The notes below the pieces were generated by a model. That model was not told where the DNA came from. It ran no database searches and was given only the letters and a program-made list of their open reading frames with translations. This document shows positions 2,527-57,303 of a stretch of DNA of 64,000 bases, piece by piece (position 1 is the stretch's first letter; every line of letters begins with the position of its first letter). The translations under genes were made by a program, and so were the position numbers. This stretch comes from a virus: positions 1 through 64,000 of IMG/VR virus record IMGVR_UViG_3300005613_004097; one strand, 5' to 3'.

Positions 2527-3285
2527 TTAAAATGAATGTTTAGGTAGATATTCTTCCAATGTAGGAACAAAGTTGAGACATCGATAGAATTTTGCATCAG
2601 ACTCAGGACCGATATAAAGTAAGTATCCACCAGCTACTGGAAATCCCCATTCTCTTAATATGGTTGCATAAAGTGATATCTGAATTGAATATTCATTGTG
2701 ATGGTTCTGATAATGATCTTGAAATGGTGTCAACAATTTATCATATCTTTGTGTTTCATCGGTGGTGAATTTTTTATTTGTCTTATAATCGACTATCACT
2801 ATTTTTCCCTTGTATAGAAATAGTGAATCTATTGTTCCAGCAATCGGATATTTCTTTGAGAAAACTCTTTTTTCCATTACTATCGGTTCCAATTTATGAA
2901 GGTGTGTTGCGTATATCTTATTGAATTTGTTTATTCTGTCTATGATATCAATATTGGTGGGCAATGGATTGTATTTTTCATTGAAATAATCTTCGATCCA
3001 TTCGTGTGTTGCTGTTCCCACGATATTTGCGTAGTCATTCTTATCTTGCCATTCCTTTAGTATTTCCTCTTGCGAGATACCTCTATCATCGGCCTTCTTT
3101 TTTGACCAGTATTCTGTGTCGAATTTTTTGTGAAAGTTCTGTAAGAATTGAGTTGCTGAGATGTAATGTTTTCCCTTATAATGGTATTTGTGCTGATCGG
3201 GATCGAATGTGAATTCGGGATCATCGAAACAGGTCAGTTTATTTATGATTTCATCTTTTGTCACATTTATTTTATTGAAAATCAA
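2527..3285 (-). CDS. PD-(D/E)xK exonuclease
   Basis: 'GTATHEWIE', 'IAGTIDSLF', 'IVDYKT', 'QISLYA' motifs; TTG start uncertain. Confidence 0.8.
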   Translation of the reverse strand: MIFNKINVTKDEIINKLTCFDDPEFTFDPDQHKYHYKGKHYISATQFLQNFHKKFDTEYWSKKKADDRGISQEEILKEWQDKNDYANIVGTATHEWIEDYFNEKYNPLPTNIDIIDRINKFNKIYATHLHKLEPIVMEKRVFSKKYPIAGTIDSLFLYKGKIVIVDYKTNKKFTTDETQRYDKLLTPFQDHYQNHHNEYSIQISLYATILREWGFPVAGGYLLYIGPESDAKFYRCLNFVPTLEEYLPKHSF

Positions 3286-3309
3286 CTCATTGGTTTAATA
3301 TATAGATGT

Positions 3310-4275
3310 ATGAAACTCTTAAAATACAGACAATTCAATGAGTCTAAACAGAATATAGATTCCATATGTAAAGAATTTGGCATCAAAAACTATACTATCA
3401 ATGGGGATGGATCAATTGATGTTGATGGAAATGTTGATTTATCATCTAAAAAATTAACTAAACTTCCATTAAAATTCAGAAATGTAAGTGGTGGTTTTTG
3501 GTGTCATGATAATAAATTAACTTCTTTAGAAGGAAGTCCAAAAAGTGTTGGTTATTTTGATTGTTCTAGGAATCAATTAACTTCTTTAGAAGGAAGTCCA
3601 AAAAGTGTTGGTGGTTATTTTGATTGTTCTAGGAATCAATTAACTTCTTTAGAAGGAAGTCCAAAAAGTGTTGGTTATTTTGATTGTTCTAGGAATCAAT
3701 TAACTTCTTTAGAAGGAAGTCCAAAAAGGGTTGCTGGTAATTTTTGGTGTGATGATAATAAATTAACTTCTTTAGAAGGTGGTCCAAAAAGTGTGGGTGG
3801 TGATTTTTATTGTGATAATAATAATCAATTAACTTCTTTAGAAGGAAGTCCAAGTGTGGGTGGTGATTTTTATTGTCATGCTAATAAATTAACTTCTTTA
3901 GAAGGTGGTCCAAAAAGTGTTGGTGGTCATTTTAATTGTCATGATAATAAATTAACTTCTTTAGAAGGTGGTCCAAAAAGTGTGGGTGGTGATTTTTATT
4001 GTCATGATAACACAAGCCTTATTTCACTTGAAGGATTTCCTCTACACTATGATGAGACCAAAAACTTTTCATGCGAAAACACCAAACTTGAAGAAATATA
4101 TGAACTCTTTGACACCATCGATGCAATTGAATGGATCAACGAATTCGAAGCGATCAATTATGACAGTGATGTTCCAGAAGTTTATTATATGAAATTATTG
4201 GATGTTTGGAACGAACTTGGACAAGAACCTATACCAAAAGAGGAAATAAATCTTAAAAATTATAAATTGATATGA
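3310..4275 (+). CDS. leucine-rich-repeat-like protein (LTSLEGxPxxVGGxFxC repeats)
   Basis: Likely start MKLLKYRQFNES after TAATATATA at 3296-3304; eight 20-22-aa repeats. Confidence 0.85.
   Translation: MKLLKYRQFNESKQNIDSICKEFGIKNYTINGDGSIDVDGNVDLSSKKLTKLPLKFRNVSGGFWCHDNKLTSLEGSPKSVGYFDCSRNQLTSLEGSPKSVGGYFDCSRNQLTSLEGSPKSVGYFDCSRNQLTSLEGSPKRVAGNFWCDDNKLTSLEGGPKSVGGDFYCDNNNQLTSLEGSPSVGGDFYCHANKLTSLEGGPKSVGGHFNCHDNKLTSLEGGPKSVGGDFYCHDNTSLISLEGFPLHYDETKNFSCENTKLEEIYELFDTIDAIEWINEFEAINYDSDVPEVYYMKLLDVWNELGQEPIPKEEINLKNYKLI
3480..4040 (+). repeat. intragenic tandem repeat, 60-66 bp units
   Basis: Core aattaacttctttagaagg recurs 8 times, some units nearly identical; boundaries approximate. Confidence 0.9.
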
Positions 4276-21678: not shown

Positions 21679-23586
21679 TTAGGTGAATTTTTCAAATTTT
21701 ATCTTACCACAGTCGTAAACTTTTAATATATCAAGATCTGATTCTGATAATCCTGTTTTTGATTTTCTGAATCTGGATTTATGAATTCTTTTACCATCCA
21801 CGATATATTTGTAATCAGGATCGGTTTTGCTTGTATTTTTGAATCCTAAATTGAAATAGAGTCTTCCGATGCTCCAATCACTATCTGCATAGCTGATAAT
21901 TCTTTCGGGGTTGAATTCTTTTATGAAATAAGATAAAAGTTTAGAAGCACCACCTACTACTGATAAATTCAATTTGTTACAGAATCTCGACAAGTTCCAC
22001 TCATTATCCTTCATCTTCTTTCTACCTTCATTCTTATCGAATAACATAGTTGCAACTAATTCACTATCATGGTATAGACCTAACTTGACTTTTGAAGATA
22101 CGAATCCTTGTATATGATTTTTGTCTAGGAATTCCCTTACTGATCTTACATCATTGATTTCTTTCACATGACATTTCCTTGCAAATATTTTTCTATCAGT
22201 TCTTTCAATGATGTTTTTGATCATCGATTTTAGTATTTCTTGTTTGAATGTCCAATCATCCTCCCAAATATGTATGATTCGAATTTCCCTTTCTTTGAAA
22301 TGTTCTGTTTTATCTATGTGATAATTTTTGTCTTTCTTATCTGATGAATGCCAATATAATCCATTGAATTCAAATCCTAATTTTAATTCTGGTAGGTAAA
22401 TATCGATCTCTAATTCATCTCTATATGATCTCATAATTTCCCCTTCATATATAGAATCTATAAAATCATAAATTTGTGATTCTTTTATTGAGATGGACTT
22501 ATTTATAGGATGACAGATTGTGCAAAGTGGGACTTTCAAATAGATGCGGTGTAAGTAATTATCTGAACTTATCTCAAATTCATGTCCAATTTCACATTTG
22601 AAAAGGGAAATCCCATCACCAACATAACGAATAAAATTCTTATCATTATCAATTTTATTTTTGGATTTTCTAAATATTGGTAATTGTTGAATATTGTTAA
22701 CTCCAAATTTATCAATGTTTGACTTTTTAGCTTTTTCTTTAAATTCACTTGTTTTTGAATAGGATTCAAACCCATAAAGTTCTAAGTTTGTGTTAGATAT
22801 TCTCTCTTTATATTCATCTGTTTTTGAATAACTGTCATATCCATATCTTTCAATGTTTGTTCTGTATAATTTATCTTTAAAGTCTTTGTGTTGTGAATAA
22901 TATTCAACTCCGTATCTTTCTAAATTTGTTTTCTTTGTTTTTTCTTTAATTTCATCTGACTTCATTGGGTTATCAACACCCCAGTTCTTTCTCAGAGTTT
23001 TCTTTGCCTTTTCTTGAATTTCCTCTGACATCAGAGGGGAAACATATCCATATGTTTCAAGATTGGTTTTCTTTATTTTTTCTTTAACCTCTTCTGATTG
23101 TGATGCCTTTTCCACACCATATTTTTCAAGGTTTGTTTTTTTGGACTTTTCTTTTATTTCTTCTGATTGTAAACTCCACTCAACTCCATATTTTTTCAGG
23201 TTTGTTTCCTTTACACGAGTTTTATACTCATCAGTTTTGGTGTAATTATCAACCCCATATTTTTTCAGGTTTGTTTCTTTTATTTTTTCTTTGATAGTAT
23301 CGGATTTAAATGCGTGCTCAACCCCGAATCGTTCGATGTTTGTTTTTTTTCTTTTATCCTTTACTCGATCAAGTTGTGATGGATTTTCAACTCCTTCACT
23401 TTCTAATAAAATTTGTTTTCTTTTTTCATAAGCACATTTTCTCGAACAAGAGAATTTATTGCCCTTTGTAAAGCTACGGTTATAGAGCTTGTAACTTACT
23501 TTTACTTCGGTGCCACAGAAATCGCAGATGGCATCCACCTTTTTATTCGATCCTTTGGGTAATCCCTCAACATTTGTTATCAACAT
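21679..23586 (-). CDS. putative homing endonuclease with KTNLEKYGV repeats and Vsr-like nuclease domain
   Basis: About ten 'KTNLE(K/R)YGV....S.EIKEK' repeats, Cys pairs, 'EIDIYLPELKLGFEFNGLYWHS', 'IHIWEDDW'. Confidence 0.7.
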   Translation of the reverse strand: MLITNVEGLPKGSNKKVDAICDFCGTEVKVSYKLYNRSFTKGNKFSCSRKCAYEKRKQILLESEGVENPSQLDRVKDKRKKTNIERFGVEHAFKSDTIKEKIKETNLKKYGVDNYTKTDEYKTRVKETNLKKYGVEWSLQSEEIKEKSKKTNLEKYGVEKASQSEEVKEKIKKTNLETYGYVSPLMSEEIQEKAKKTLRKNWGVDNPMKSDEIKEKTKKTNLERYGVEYYSQHKDFKDKLYRTNIERYGYDSYSKTDEYKERISNTNLELYGFESYSKTSEFKEKAKKSNIDKFGVNNIQQLPIFRKSKNKIDNDKNFIRYVGDGISLFKCEIGHEFEISSDNYLHRIYLKVPLCTICHPINKSISIKESQIYDFIDSIYEGEIMRSYRDELEIDIYLPELKLGFEFNGLYWHSSDKKDKNYHIDKTEHFKEREIRIIHIWEDDWTFKQEILKSMIKNIIERTDRKIFARKCHVKEINDVRSVREFLDKNHIQGFVSSKVKLGLYHDSELVATMLFDKNEGRKKMKDNEWNLSRFCNKLNLSVVGGASKLLSYFIKEFNPERIISYADSDWSIGRLYFNLGFKNTSKTDPDYKYIVDGKRIHKSRFRKSKTGLSESDLDILKVYDCGKIKFEKFT

Positions 23587-26790: not shown

Positions 26791-27132
26791 GGTGTGCTTA
26801 CCTCTATTGTGAGAATGGAGAAAAAGTGGTCAGGTGTTCCTACCTTTGATTTTAGATGTTGTTCCACCTCGTTTTACTATCAACAAACACCAATTCGGGG
26901 TGTTCCTACCTTTGATTTTAGATGTTGTTCCACCTCAGGAAACCTCTTAACATTTAAGAGCGAGGGTGTTCCTACCTTTGATTTTAGATGTTGTTCCACC
27001 AGTGAAGGGTACATGCTTGATGGAAAGCCGGGTGTTCCTACCTTTGATTTTAGATGTTGTTCCACCAAGCATAGCAGTCCAACGTATCGCCATTCAGGTG
27101 TTCCTACCTTTGATTTTAGATGTTGTTCCACC
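26791..27132 (-). CRISPR. orphan CRISPR-like array: 5 identical 36-bp repeats, four 30-bp spacers, plus a fifth 30-bp spacer and a truncated terminal repeat
   Basis: Repeat (+) GGTGTTCCTACCTTTGATTTTAGATGTTGTTCCACC at 26833, 26899, 26965, 27031, 27097; unique 30-nt spacers; 12-nt degenerate repeat at 26791-26802; no cas genes recognised in the window. Confidence 0.85.
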
Positions 27133-27425
27133 AGGAACTTTATAATTGCTTGAATGTCAGTCCTTTCCAGTGAAAATTCGTTTGAAAAAATGGACCAAAA
27201 ACCATCCCATCTTACCCGAAGAGTATCATTTTCCAAATCCTGTTCCATAACATATCGATCACCTTGCATGAAGAAATAGGAATTTGGCCACTTTTCGGTA
27301 GTTTTAATCTGAAATCCTTCAAGGTTTTGATCAACCACTTGTTTCATTTTCTCATAGGAGGTTTTGTAGGGCCATTCAGAAATGCCCATTTCCCAAAATT
27401 TGATTTTTCTTAATTGCTGTTTCAT
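26880..27425 (-). CDS. small hypothetical protein whose 3' end runs in frame into the repeat array
   Basis: ~98-aa unique part, then VEQHLKSKVGTP x4 separated by translated spacers; coupled to the upstream gene. Confidence 0.75.
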   Translation of the reverse strand: MKQQLRKIKFWEMGISEWPYKTSYEKMKQVVDQNLEGFQIKTTEKWPNSYFFMQGDRYVMEQDLENDTLRVRWDGFWSIFSNEFSLERTDIQAIIKFLVEQHLKSKVGTPEWRYVGLLCLVEQHLKSKVGTPGFPSSMYPSLVEQHLKSKVGTPSLLNVKRFPEVEQHLKSKVGTPRIGVC

Positions 27426-27775
27426 TATAGTATCTGTCTTAATCTTATATTTCTTACCTCTTTCTGAGTGTAGGGTTCAGGAATGTTCAGGTCCTTATGT
27501 AATGTTTCTATATTTCTTATCTGATCCTTGGTTAGTGATCCTATTGAAAGGTTTCGCATTCTTGCTTCGTTTAATTCTCTTAGTGCGTCCAATCTCCTTA
27601 CATTATCTAAAACTAGTTCGTCTGATGAGTCGTGTTTTGCAACGGTCAATGCGGTCAATATCACTCTTTCTTCCAATGTGAGGTCTTTTGTTGCTATTGG
27701 ATTTACATTCATGTCCAAGAAGACTTTTCTTATCTTGTCCTTTGTTTCTTCTGTCATTGTTTCATGTAACATCAT
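27425..27775 (-). CDS. hypothetical protein
   Basis: 116 aa, ends VRNIRLRQIL. Confidence 0.65.
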   Translation of the reverse strand: MMLHETMTEETKDKIRKVFLDMNVNPIATKDLTLEERVILTALTVAKHDSSDELVLDNVRRLDALRELNEARMRNLSIGSLTKDQIRNIETLHKDLNIPEPYTQKEVRNIRLRQIL

Positions 27776-28365
27776 GATATCTTTAATTTAAAATATCTCT
27801 TGTATTGTTTTATTGTCCAATTGTTCTCTTTTAAGAATAGGATCACCGCAGTTATTACTCCTATGAGGTGCGCTGTGTGTGCAGTTCGTTCTAATGGGAA
27901 CCATAGATGGTAGATTTCTTTCGATATCATGAACCAGAAAATCCATGTCAGGGGTATCAGGTTGTAGAATTTTACAGTCGGGTTTATAAGAAAATGATAA
28001 GTGAATACGCCAAATACTGCACCACTTGCTCCTACCATTGTTCCTTCTTTGAACAACATATATCCGATTGCAGATACGATACCCATCAATATATAATATC
28101 TTAGAAATTTTCTTGGTCCCAAATCAATTTCGACAGTTGGAGCAAATAAAAGTAGGAATATCATATTGGAGAAGATATGGTTGATATCAGCATGTAAGAA
28201 CATGTAGGTCACCAGTTGGATAGGATTGAATCCGTCTCCTATCGAGTGTAAAGCGAACATCTCGACAATTATTTCAATGAGTTTGTCTGGTAATAAGTAA
28301 ATGGATAAAAGTGAAACAATGTTTATCCAAAAGATTCGTTTTGTGTAGTAAGTGCCTATGAACAT
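27772..28365 (-). CDS. rhomboid intramembrane serine protease
   Basis: 'TYMFLHA...HIFSNM', GASG catalytic Ser, 'AHTAHLIG'; hydrophobic; promoter motif at 28382-28389. Confidence 0.9.
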   Translation of the reverse strand: MFIGTYYTKRIFWINIVSLLSIYLLPDKLIEIIVEMFALHSIGDGFNPIQLVTYMFLHADINHIFSNMIFLLLFAPTVEIDLGPRKFLRYYILMGIVSAIGYMLFKEGTMVGASGAVFGVFTYHFLINPTVKFYNLIPLTWIFWFMISKEIYHLWFPLERTAHTAHLIGVITAVILFLKENNWTIKQYKRYFKLKIS

Positions 28366-57123: not shown

Positions 57124-57303
57124 TCAAAAAAATTGTAGCTCATACATTGAGGCATTGTGAGAGTAGAGTATATGTGGTTCTCTTACTGCAGACCCATATA
57201 GATTCCGATCAACAACTTCTTTGACTGTCTCATAGGAGATTTGATAAGGCCATTCACTAATGCCCAATTCCCATAATTTAAGTTTTCTAAGTTGTTTTTT
57301 CAT
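57124..57303 (-). CDS. short paralog of the array-associated protein
   Basis: MKKQLRKLKLWELGISEWPYQISYETVKEVVDRNLYG; 26 of 37 residues identical to the N-terminus of 26880-27425. Confidence 0.7.
   Translation of the reverse strand: MKKQLRKLKLWELGISEWPYQISYETVKEVVDRNLYGSAVREPHILYSHNASMYELQFF

Follow-up and report, generated by a model that had tools for sequence, protein, structure and literature searches.

A CRISPR-type array of a putative huge phage whose first repeat is the coding end of a small gene

The stretch of DNA analysed here, called the window, covers positions 1-64,000 of IMG/VR virus record IMGVR_UViG_3300005613_004097 (108.5 kb) and carries on the minus strand a short array of direct repeats that is joined without a break to a small protein-coding gene. 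The preferred reading, which we judge to be somewhat better than an even bet, is that this is a CRISPR array of a huge phage in which the small gene occupies the leader position, its last 12 codons double as the first repeat, and the Cas machinery is borrowed from the host. The comparisons below show the anatomy of the array, the turnover of its spacers, its polarity, a gene-repeat fusion that recurs throughout a protein family and a double constraint on the repeat; the probable integrator, the probable user of the RNA and the possible role of the protein are inferred.

The array comprises five identical 36-bp repeats, which read GGTGGAACAACATCTAAAATCAAAGGTAGGAACACC on the minus strand, and five mutually unrelated 30-bp spacers, at a start-to-start distance of exactly 66 (Table 1). 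At the trailer end, a 12-nt remnant closes the last spacer, and a match of its quality at that fixed position has a chance of ~3e-5 by our own arithmetic. The small gene belongs to an open reading frame of 181 aa (26880-27425, minus strand) that reads ...IIKFL and then VEQHLKSKVGTP, in frame through repeat 1 and three more repeats to a TGA in spacer 4, with no non-coding leader in between. These features had been described in an earlier sequence-only reading of the window, and all of its factual statements held when checked against the sequence. Near-identical direct repeats within the 23-47 nt range and unique spacers of constant length are general properties of CRISPR arrays; where a non-coding AT-rich leader would be expected, however, there is a coding gene under purifying selection, with repeat 1 inside it. 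The repeat ends, GGTG and CACC, can pair as had been proposed, and enclose an A-rich loop (CUAAAAUCAAAGG), although the fold of a single whole repeat is no better than that of shuffled sequences (z = -0.95). No further copy of the repeat was found elsewhere in the 108.5-kb record. Repeats of other kinds occur in the window: a protein-coding 63-nt tandem repeat of 8.4 copies (3488-4010, plus strand, within ORF 3166-4275) encodes 21-aa units that resemble a leucine-rich-repeat type protein, and weaker 69-nt repeats lie at 22904-23211 within a 656-aa DUF7487 ORF.

Table 1. Features of the gene-array locus and of a related gene in the window
Feature	Position	Strand	Remarks
Rhomboid-family intramembrane protease gene	27772-28365	-	Pfam E 4.5e-25; two genes upstream of the array
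116-aa ORF upstream of the small gene	27425-27775	-	its stop overlaps the start of the small gene
Small gene body, codons 1-97	27133-27425	-	ORF; large phage-only family of ~100-aa proteins
Frozen coding stretch D-I-Q-A-I-I-K-F-L, 26 nt, containing TTATAAAG	27133-27158	-	directly upstream of repeat 1
Repeat 1	27097-27132	-	encodes VEQHLKSKVGTP: end of the C-terminal helix and the protein's last conserved residues
Spacer 1	27067-27096	-	sequence
Repeat 2	27031-27066	-	sequence
Spacer 2	27001-27030	-	sequence
Repeat 3	26965-27000	-	sequence
Spacer 3	26935-26964	-	sequence
Repeat 4	26899-26934	-	sequence
Spacer 4	26869-26898	-	contains the TGA of the ORF at 26880-26882
Repeat 5	26833-26868	-	sequence
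Spacer 5	26803-26832	-	last spacer, trailer end of the array
Decayed repeat remnant, 12 nt, GGTAAGCACACC	26791-26802	-	10/12 match to the last 12 nt of the repeat
Truncated second copy of the family gene	57124-57303	-	first 41 residues 63% identical

CheckV estimates the 108.5-kb record at ~18% of a full genome, from which it is judged to be a fragment of a very large (huge) phage, with a GC content of 33%. The neighbouring genes are in keeping with such an origin: they encode topoisomerase II subunits, a rhomboid protease, an NAD-dependent ligase, a DUF2201 metallopeptidase/VWA protein and one tRNA-Arg. In GenBank, two uncultured phages of 634-642 kb are the only phages with DNA similarity to the record, and that similarity is weak; the profile of the small-protein family was not found in these two, and tblastn gave no match to the small protein in GenBank phages. 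Searches of Pfam, PADLOC and PHROGs returned no match for the small protein or its two neighbours. The earlier description of the array as Cas-less is upheld for the window and extends to the whole 108.5-kb record (18% complete), in both of which no cas genes were found; because the record covers 18% of the genome, we correct the term by restricting it to the DNA examined.

The content of the array changes rapidly between relatives. Close relatives with flanks that are 95-99% identical carry different spacers, and a related phage record (G001) contains two such units whose spacers differ from those of the window. A metagenome contig (L009) shares the downstream 508-aa gene and the repeat with the window and has wholly different spacers of 29, 30 and 31 nt; it contains two repeat variants, the newer one on the gene side, and another decayed end at the corresponding place. 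Aquatic and marine metagenome contigs with flanks 98-99.5% identical have other array content, with several different sequences abutting repeat 1, and one contig with near-identical flanks has 51 nt in place of 229 nt of array; the comparison used assembled contigs of public runs, among which those of the one RNA run did not reach over the array. In the contigs of 98-99.5% flank identity, the middle of the small gene (window 27212-27367) is also replaced, by 153 nt of <85% identity; judging by this pattern, gene and array may be swapped together, as one cassette. Older or decayed repeat variants are located at the gene-distal end, as predicted by duplication of the repeat at the gene-proximal end: the last repeat of L012 and unit 5 of one array in a 218-kb record (G002) keep the state of a sister array. 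Together with L009, these cases support the minus-strand polarity that had been deduced from the decayed trailer. Spacers that vary between close relatives, polarisation and a decayed trailer repeat (L009, L011, L012 and the metagenome contigs) again correspond to general properties of CRISPR arrays. Conservation of the spacers as peptides among relatives had been named in advance as the mark of a plain protein repeat, and in close relatives the spacers are completely different. On these comparisons, the locus is a genuine, actively changing CRISPR-type array and does not behave as a protein repeat.

Past repeat 1, the array appears to be free of selection for translation. Counts of in-frame repeat copies in the family (114, 35, 13 and 1) follow a geometric decay, the ORF stops in the first spacer in 6/16 close homologs, and spacers of 29 and 31 nt shift the frame. 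The spacer peptides are high in Ser, Arg, Thr, His and Cys and low in Asp, Glu and Lys, as for translated random DNA. It had been suggested that a protein C-terminus was co-opted as an integration site, so that spacer acquisition would also diversify the protein tail. The first part of this idea stands, in that spacers enter beside a repeat that is the protein C-terminus; the diversification looks like a by-product, because read-through decays geometrically, some spacers shift the frame and the spacer peptides are random-like. A few long ORFs (P0018, P0023, P0019 and P0024) contain two to five tandem units of the family domain plus two to three repeats in one frame, with domains up to ~95% alike and unrelated spacers; P0018 (760 aa) holds five tandem domain-plus-array units in one ORF. 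Long read-through ORFs of the P0018 type may be the product of chance plus ascertainment. Readings of the locus as a cyanobactin-like precursor peptide, a DGR variable region or shufflon-like C-terminal switching were dropped because the frame is not kept, the copies are all direct, and the spacers are unrelated rather than mutated copies.

The repeat DNA is under a double constraint, as protein and as nucleic acid. Comparison of the window with L011 and L012 gave dN ~0.2 versus dS ~1.0, at saturation for synonymous sites, in the gene body; for the 12 codons of the repeat, the same three sequences gave a dS of 0.12-0.26, 4-9 times below the gene body. Likewise, the 26 nt before repeat 1 are 100% identical in the window, L011 and L012 despite dS ~1 elsewhere, and distant clades have a related motif, ATTCAAnCAnTTATAAAG, before repeat 1, in which AAG is kept in very AT-rich genomes. 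The synonymous conservation of the repeat and the 26 nt against a saturated background points to selection on the site itself. The 26-nt stretch is placed as a leader-repeat junction or an array promoter would be, and could serve as either. Whether protein or RNA pairing constrains the repeat had been posed as a question; the low dS speaks for constraint on the nucleotides, and the terminal stem is kept in 15/16 units of the window's clade, whereas the repeats of other family clades are unstructured and unlike VI-B repeats. GUUG/CAAC ends occur in relatives: one GUUG...CAAC unit stands beside GGUG...CACC units in an array of G003, an IMG/VR record, and represents a compensatory change.

The small protein is judged to be a real, selected protein, because of its dN/dS of ~0.2 and the quality of its AlphaFold (AF2) model, which was built from 142 family sequences and reaches pLDDT 96, repeat-encoded residues included, with pTM 0.87. 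The last helix of the model (residues 88-103) spans the gene-repeat junction, in agreement with the earlier proposal that the coding first repeat continues the preceding helix, and the repeat-encoded residues 98-109 each have pLDDT >= 90; as modelled, repeat 1 belongs to the fold of the protein. No fold relative was found for this deep-alignment model (Foldseek best E 0.23; VIA wide best Z 4.2). A first model (pLDDT 67) had given a best E of 0.24 in Foldseek against the PDB, and the ESM Atlas returned just viral 'hypothetical protein' clusters, at 0.78. An enzymatic function appears unlikely because a single residue, W77, is near-invariant in the family, which has no catalytic-looking motif. 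The truncated paralog in the window diverges after residue 41 and then stops, without a repeat or array behind it.

Throughout a large family of phage genes, the first repeat is coding sequence and this trait is conserved, which extends the earlier proposal well beyond the window. An exhaustive profile search recovered at least 788 cluster representatives at E<=1e-3, 126 of them at E<=1e-10. All 15 close homologs (15/15; ORFs of 79-177 aa) read ..IIKFLVEQHL[KR]SKVGTP and diverge after it. Distant members, 28-35% identical to the window protein, have their own version of the motif at the end (e.g. VERAFKHKVSTP, VETTYKMKVGTP and VEEHFKLMLLTP) and repeat their own VE.HLK.KV.TP-like peptide again after ~10 residues. 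A period of 22 aa (66 nt) is present in 59/61 family proteins with in-frame repeats. In the phage DNA examined, which included 15 IMG/VR loci of distant family members, a family gene lies directly upstream and on the same strand in 27/36 arrays of ~66-nt period. Several units occur per phage: three in G002 (218 kb), seven in G003 (72 kb) and nine in G005 (47 kb). The latter two, IMG/VR records of 25% GC, contain clusters of up to six family genes plus mini-arrays within 2 kb, such as that at 33.9-36.0 kb of G005, and each of these two phages has several repeat types. None of 401 sampled Bacteroidota genomes contained the family profile.

Spacer GC lies 6-11 points above phage GC in every record (0.42 vs 0.33 in the window). 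In one family member (L032), spacer 2 matches at 27/30 positions the antisense strand of the neighbouring NinB/Orf recombination gene; two of the three mismatches are synonymous third positions, and the spacer is therefore taken to derive from a relative's NinB/Orf homolog. In a gene-sense transcript, this spacer is antisense to the NinB/Orf mRNA. The GC excess and the L032 protospacer fit best with a foreign origin of the spacers. A search with the window's own five spacers, as had been recommended, found no protospacer: they did not match G000 or G001, gave nothing better than E=4 in GenBank phages and had chance-level matches alone in the 401 Bacteroidota genomes, and the 24-nt cores of spacers 1 and 2 had no match in IMG/VR. 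For spacer 5, we put a 24/25 match in L091 down to chance.

Models of Cas1, Cas9 and Cas13b had no match in 538 kb of DNA from five related phage records (~22 units), which include the window's 108.5 kb and the 218-kb record, rated 66% complete; as a control, the Cas13b model does detect the proteins of Bergeyella and Capnocytophaga. None of the large ORFs in G000 and G002 is a Cas protein. A search for a tracrRNA anti-repeat yielded no reverse match to the repeat of >13 nt in the 108.5 kb, with no Cas9 model match; cas9 and tracrRNA could be supplied by the host. Comparison of the repeat with known repeats, also recommended earlier, turned up neither a matching CRISPR-DR family in Rfam nor a bacterial array with this repeat: the exact repeat is absent from 185,579 species representatives and occurs in IMG/VR only in the window's own kin. 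A scan of the 185,579 species genomes with a two-repeat pattern did pick out canonical Cas13b arrays, those of Bergeyella and Capnocytophaga. The nearest bacterial repeat, 24/36 identical, belongs to an isolated mini-array in which one 29-nt spacer separates two 36-nt repeats (L066, 2634-2732 of the Cytophagales MAG contig JANWWC010000001.1) and of which the first repeat overlaps the last codons and the stop of an unrelated chromosomal gene. No further repeat copy and no Cas13b were found in this MAG. Spacer integration at the 3' end of a gene therefore does occur in this repeat class.

Type VI-B arrays have 36-nt repeats, 30-nt spacers, complementary ends (5'-GUUG/CAAC-3') and a poly-U loop; their loci lack cas1/cas2, and spacers are acquired in trans by II-C enzymes. 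The window array resembles type VI-B (e.g. Bergeyella zoohelcum ATCC 43767) in the length of repeat and spacers (36 and 30 nt), in 4-nt repeat ends that are complementary to each other, in being transcribed from the variable end and in a locus without cas1/cas2. It differs in that the ends are GGUG/CACC rather than GUUG/CAAC, the loop is A-rich rather than poly-U, no cas13b is seen by the array, a coding gene takes the place of the leader, and translation extends into the first repeat. Thus, the VI-B resemblance noted in the sequence-only reading is borne out for repeat length, spacer size and paired ends, and breaks down at the missing poly-U loop. The family repeat of a G003 unit and the Bergeyella repeat, whose array Cas13b adjoins, have in common a GTTGGAA start (7 nt) and a AATCACAAC end (9 nt), but such end motifs have no power to tell the Cas type, because a GGTGGAA...CACAAC repeat also adjoins Cas9 in a Kiritimatiellae MAG. 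In this MAG (G009; L068, L088), the GGTGGAAAGGG...CACAAC array adjoins a Cas9 fragment, and a Cas13b-like ORF lies on another contig (1183-aa open frame, E 3e-22), which suggests a co-occurrence of II-C and VI-B outside Bacteroidota.

Huge phages carry Cas-less compact arrays, and viral mini-arrays are used in inter-virus conflict (Al-Shayeb et al. 2020, PMC7162821; PMC11656645). The window array is similar in being short, phage-borne and without adaptation or interference genes, and a spacer from a relative's gene in one family member (L032) adds to the likeness with viral mini-arrays. In contrast, the published arrays have repeats like those of their hosts and no described link to a gene (PMC7162821; PMC11656645), whereas here the arrays are fused to a conserved coding gene and occur as many units per genome, and no host repeat match was found. 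Solitary repeat units that act as RNA anti-CRISPRs (PMC11656645) are also phage-borne CRISPR repeats without cas genes; the present locus differs in being a full array, with changing spacers of canonical length, and not a lone repeat.

On the preferred reading, new 30-nt spacers would be inserted next to the gene-embedded repeat, with the repeat copied at each insertion, so that the array would always carry copies of the gene's 3' end. Translation into the spacers would give the protein a tail of random sequence, free of selection, that lasts until a stop codon is reached. Gene and array, both on the minus strand, probably form one transcript, or the RNA may begin close to the conserved TTATAAAG. 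Integration, processing and interference enzymes are not encoded in the phage DNA examined; they would most likely come from the host, or else from the unseen part of the phage genome. We would guess first at class 2 machinery in a Bacteroidota-like host, with Cas13b of type VI-B and Cas1-Cas2 of type II-C working in trans, and at spacers used against competing related phages. Host borrowing, which was among the hypotheses of the sequence-only reading, is the best-supported account when joined to a class 2 system and to competition between phages; its support is resemblance together with a single protospacer, which belongs to a family member. Several observations go against it: the window's five spacers gave no protospacer, no bacterial array with this repeat turned up among the 185,579 species representatives, the loop is A-rich, other clades of the family have repeats that are unstructured and unlike those of VI-B, and similar end motifs also stand beside Cas9. 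In addition, the presence of 7-9 units with several repeat types per phage would be awkward for a single host effector, and the model leaves the family ORFs that read many spacers in frame (P0018) to chance and the role of the protein unexplained.

Other explanations were also weighed. The small protein, the array and unrecognised phage proteins might constitute a self-contained guide-RNA system that works without host Cas, in line with a new small-protein plus array system as raised in the sequence-only reading. Such autonomy would suit the constant attachment of the protein to the array, the several units with different repeats per phage, the lack of Cas1, Cas9 and Cas13b in 538 kb that include a record 66% complete, the many clade repeats unlike any VI-B repeat, and a protein fold without known relative. 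We nevertheless consider it unlikely, as the protein has ~100 aa, one near-invariant residue and no catalytic-looking motif, class 2 arrays have the same 36/30 geometry and the same end motifs, and no candidate effector or integrase was found in the phage DNA examined. Less credence again is given to an ordinary array served by a phage-encoded cas locus in the remaining 82% of the genome. The low completeness of the record leaves room for such a locus, and huge phages are described in the literature as encoding CRISPR-Cas systems, often without adaptation genes; yet none of the five related records (0/5) has Cas1, Cas9 or Cas13b, and the units are scattered and multi-copy rather than beside one locus. 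Even if true, this explanation would leave the gene-embedded first repeat unexplained.

Off-target spacer integration by Cas1-Cas2, giving rise to 'neo-CRISPR' arrays, was reportedly observed by Nivala and colleagues in 2018. In a neo-CRISPR, the repeat arises by duplication of the sequence flanking the integration site, and the site can be genic. The window array could then be a functionless by-product of host Cas1-Cas2 acting off-target at a gene end that resembles a leader-repeat junction. A genic integration site is common to both, and L066 looks like such a case, with a two-repeat array on the 3' end of a gene and a repeat related to the window's. Neo-CRISPR events are sporadic, however, whereas the arrangement described here is conserved and selected in at least 788 protein clusters; a by-product is improbable given that the fusion is kept between family members ~30% identical and that the synonymous sites of the repeat and the preceding 26 nt are conserved against a saturated background. 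Finally, the CRISPR likeness could be superficial and the locus a translated hypervariable protein repeat, made of a 12-aa helix and a 10-aa variable linker, as might be thought from proteins that read through four to nine 'spacers' without a stop (P0018, P0023, P0033, P0039 and P0046). We attach hardly any weight to this idea in view of the frame-shifting 29- and 31-nt spacers, the early stops in close homologs, the geometric decay of copy numbers, the random-like composition of the linkers and the perfectly identical 36-nt blocks that lie beside unrelated 30-nt blocks.

A further proposal, which we put forward with more doubt than belief, is that gene and array are an obligate two-part module of huge phages, derived from CRISPR. 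The gene would give the promoter or leader function and a master copy of the repeat, protected by selection on the protein, and the protein would act on the machinery that the phage hijacks, for instance by giving its guides preference or by blocking those of the host. The ORF lacks its own stop codon; if a Cas13b-like enzyme cut the transcript where repeat 1 ends, the mRNA would be left without a stop, and protein output would then report active host Cas.

Phage-borne arrays without cas genes are already known; what is apparently new is a leader and a first repeat that are coding sequence, an arrangement that is conserved over hundreds of gene clusters and recurs many times within a genome, and no description of such a gene-repeat fusion was found in the literature searched. 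One stretch of DNA is held by constraint at the protein level and, together with it, by constraint as guide RNA or integration site. That each new repeat is copied from the first would give a simple reason why the repeats of the array track the C-terminus of the gene. The family offers a defined test bed for the choice of site by adaptation enzymes, for the exploitation of host CRISPR by phages and for the birth of arrays. If the small protein does act on Cas proteins, it would represent a new class of CRISPR modulator, with a fold that has no known relative.
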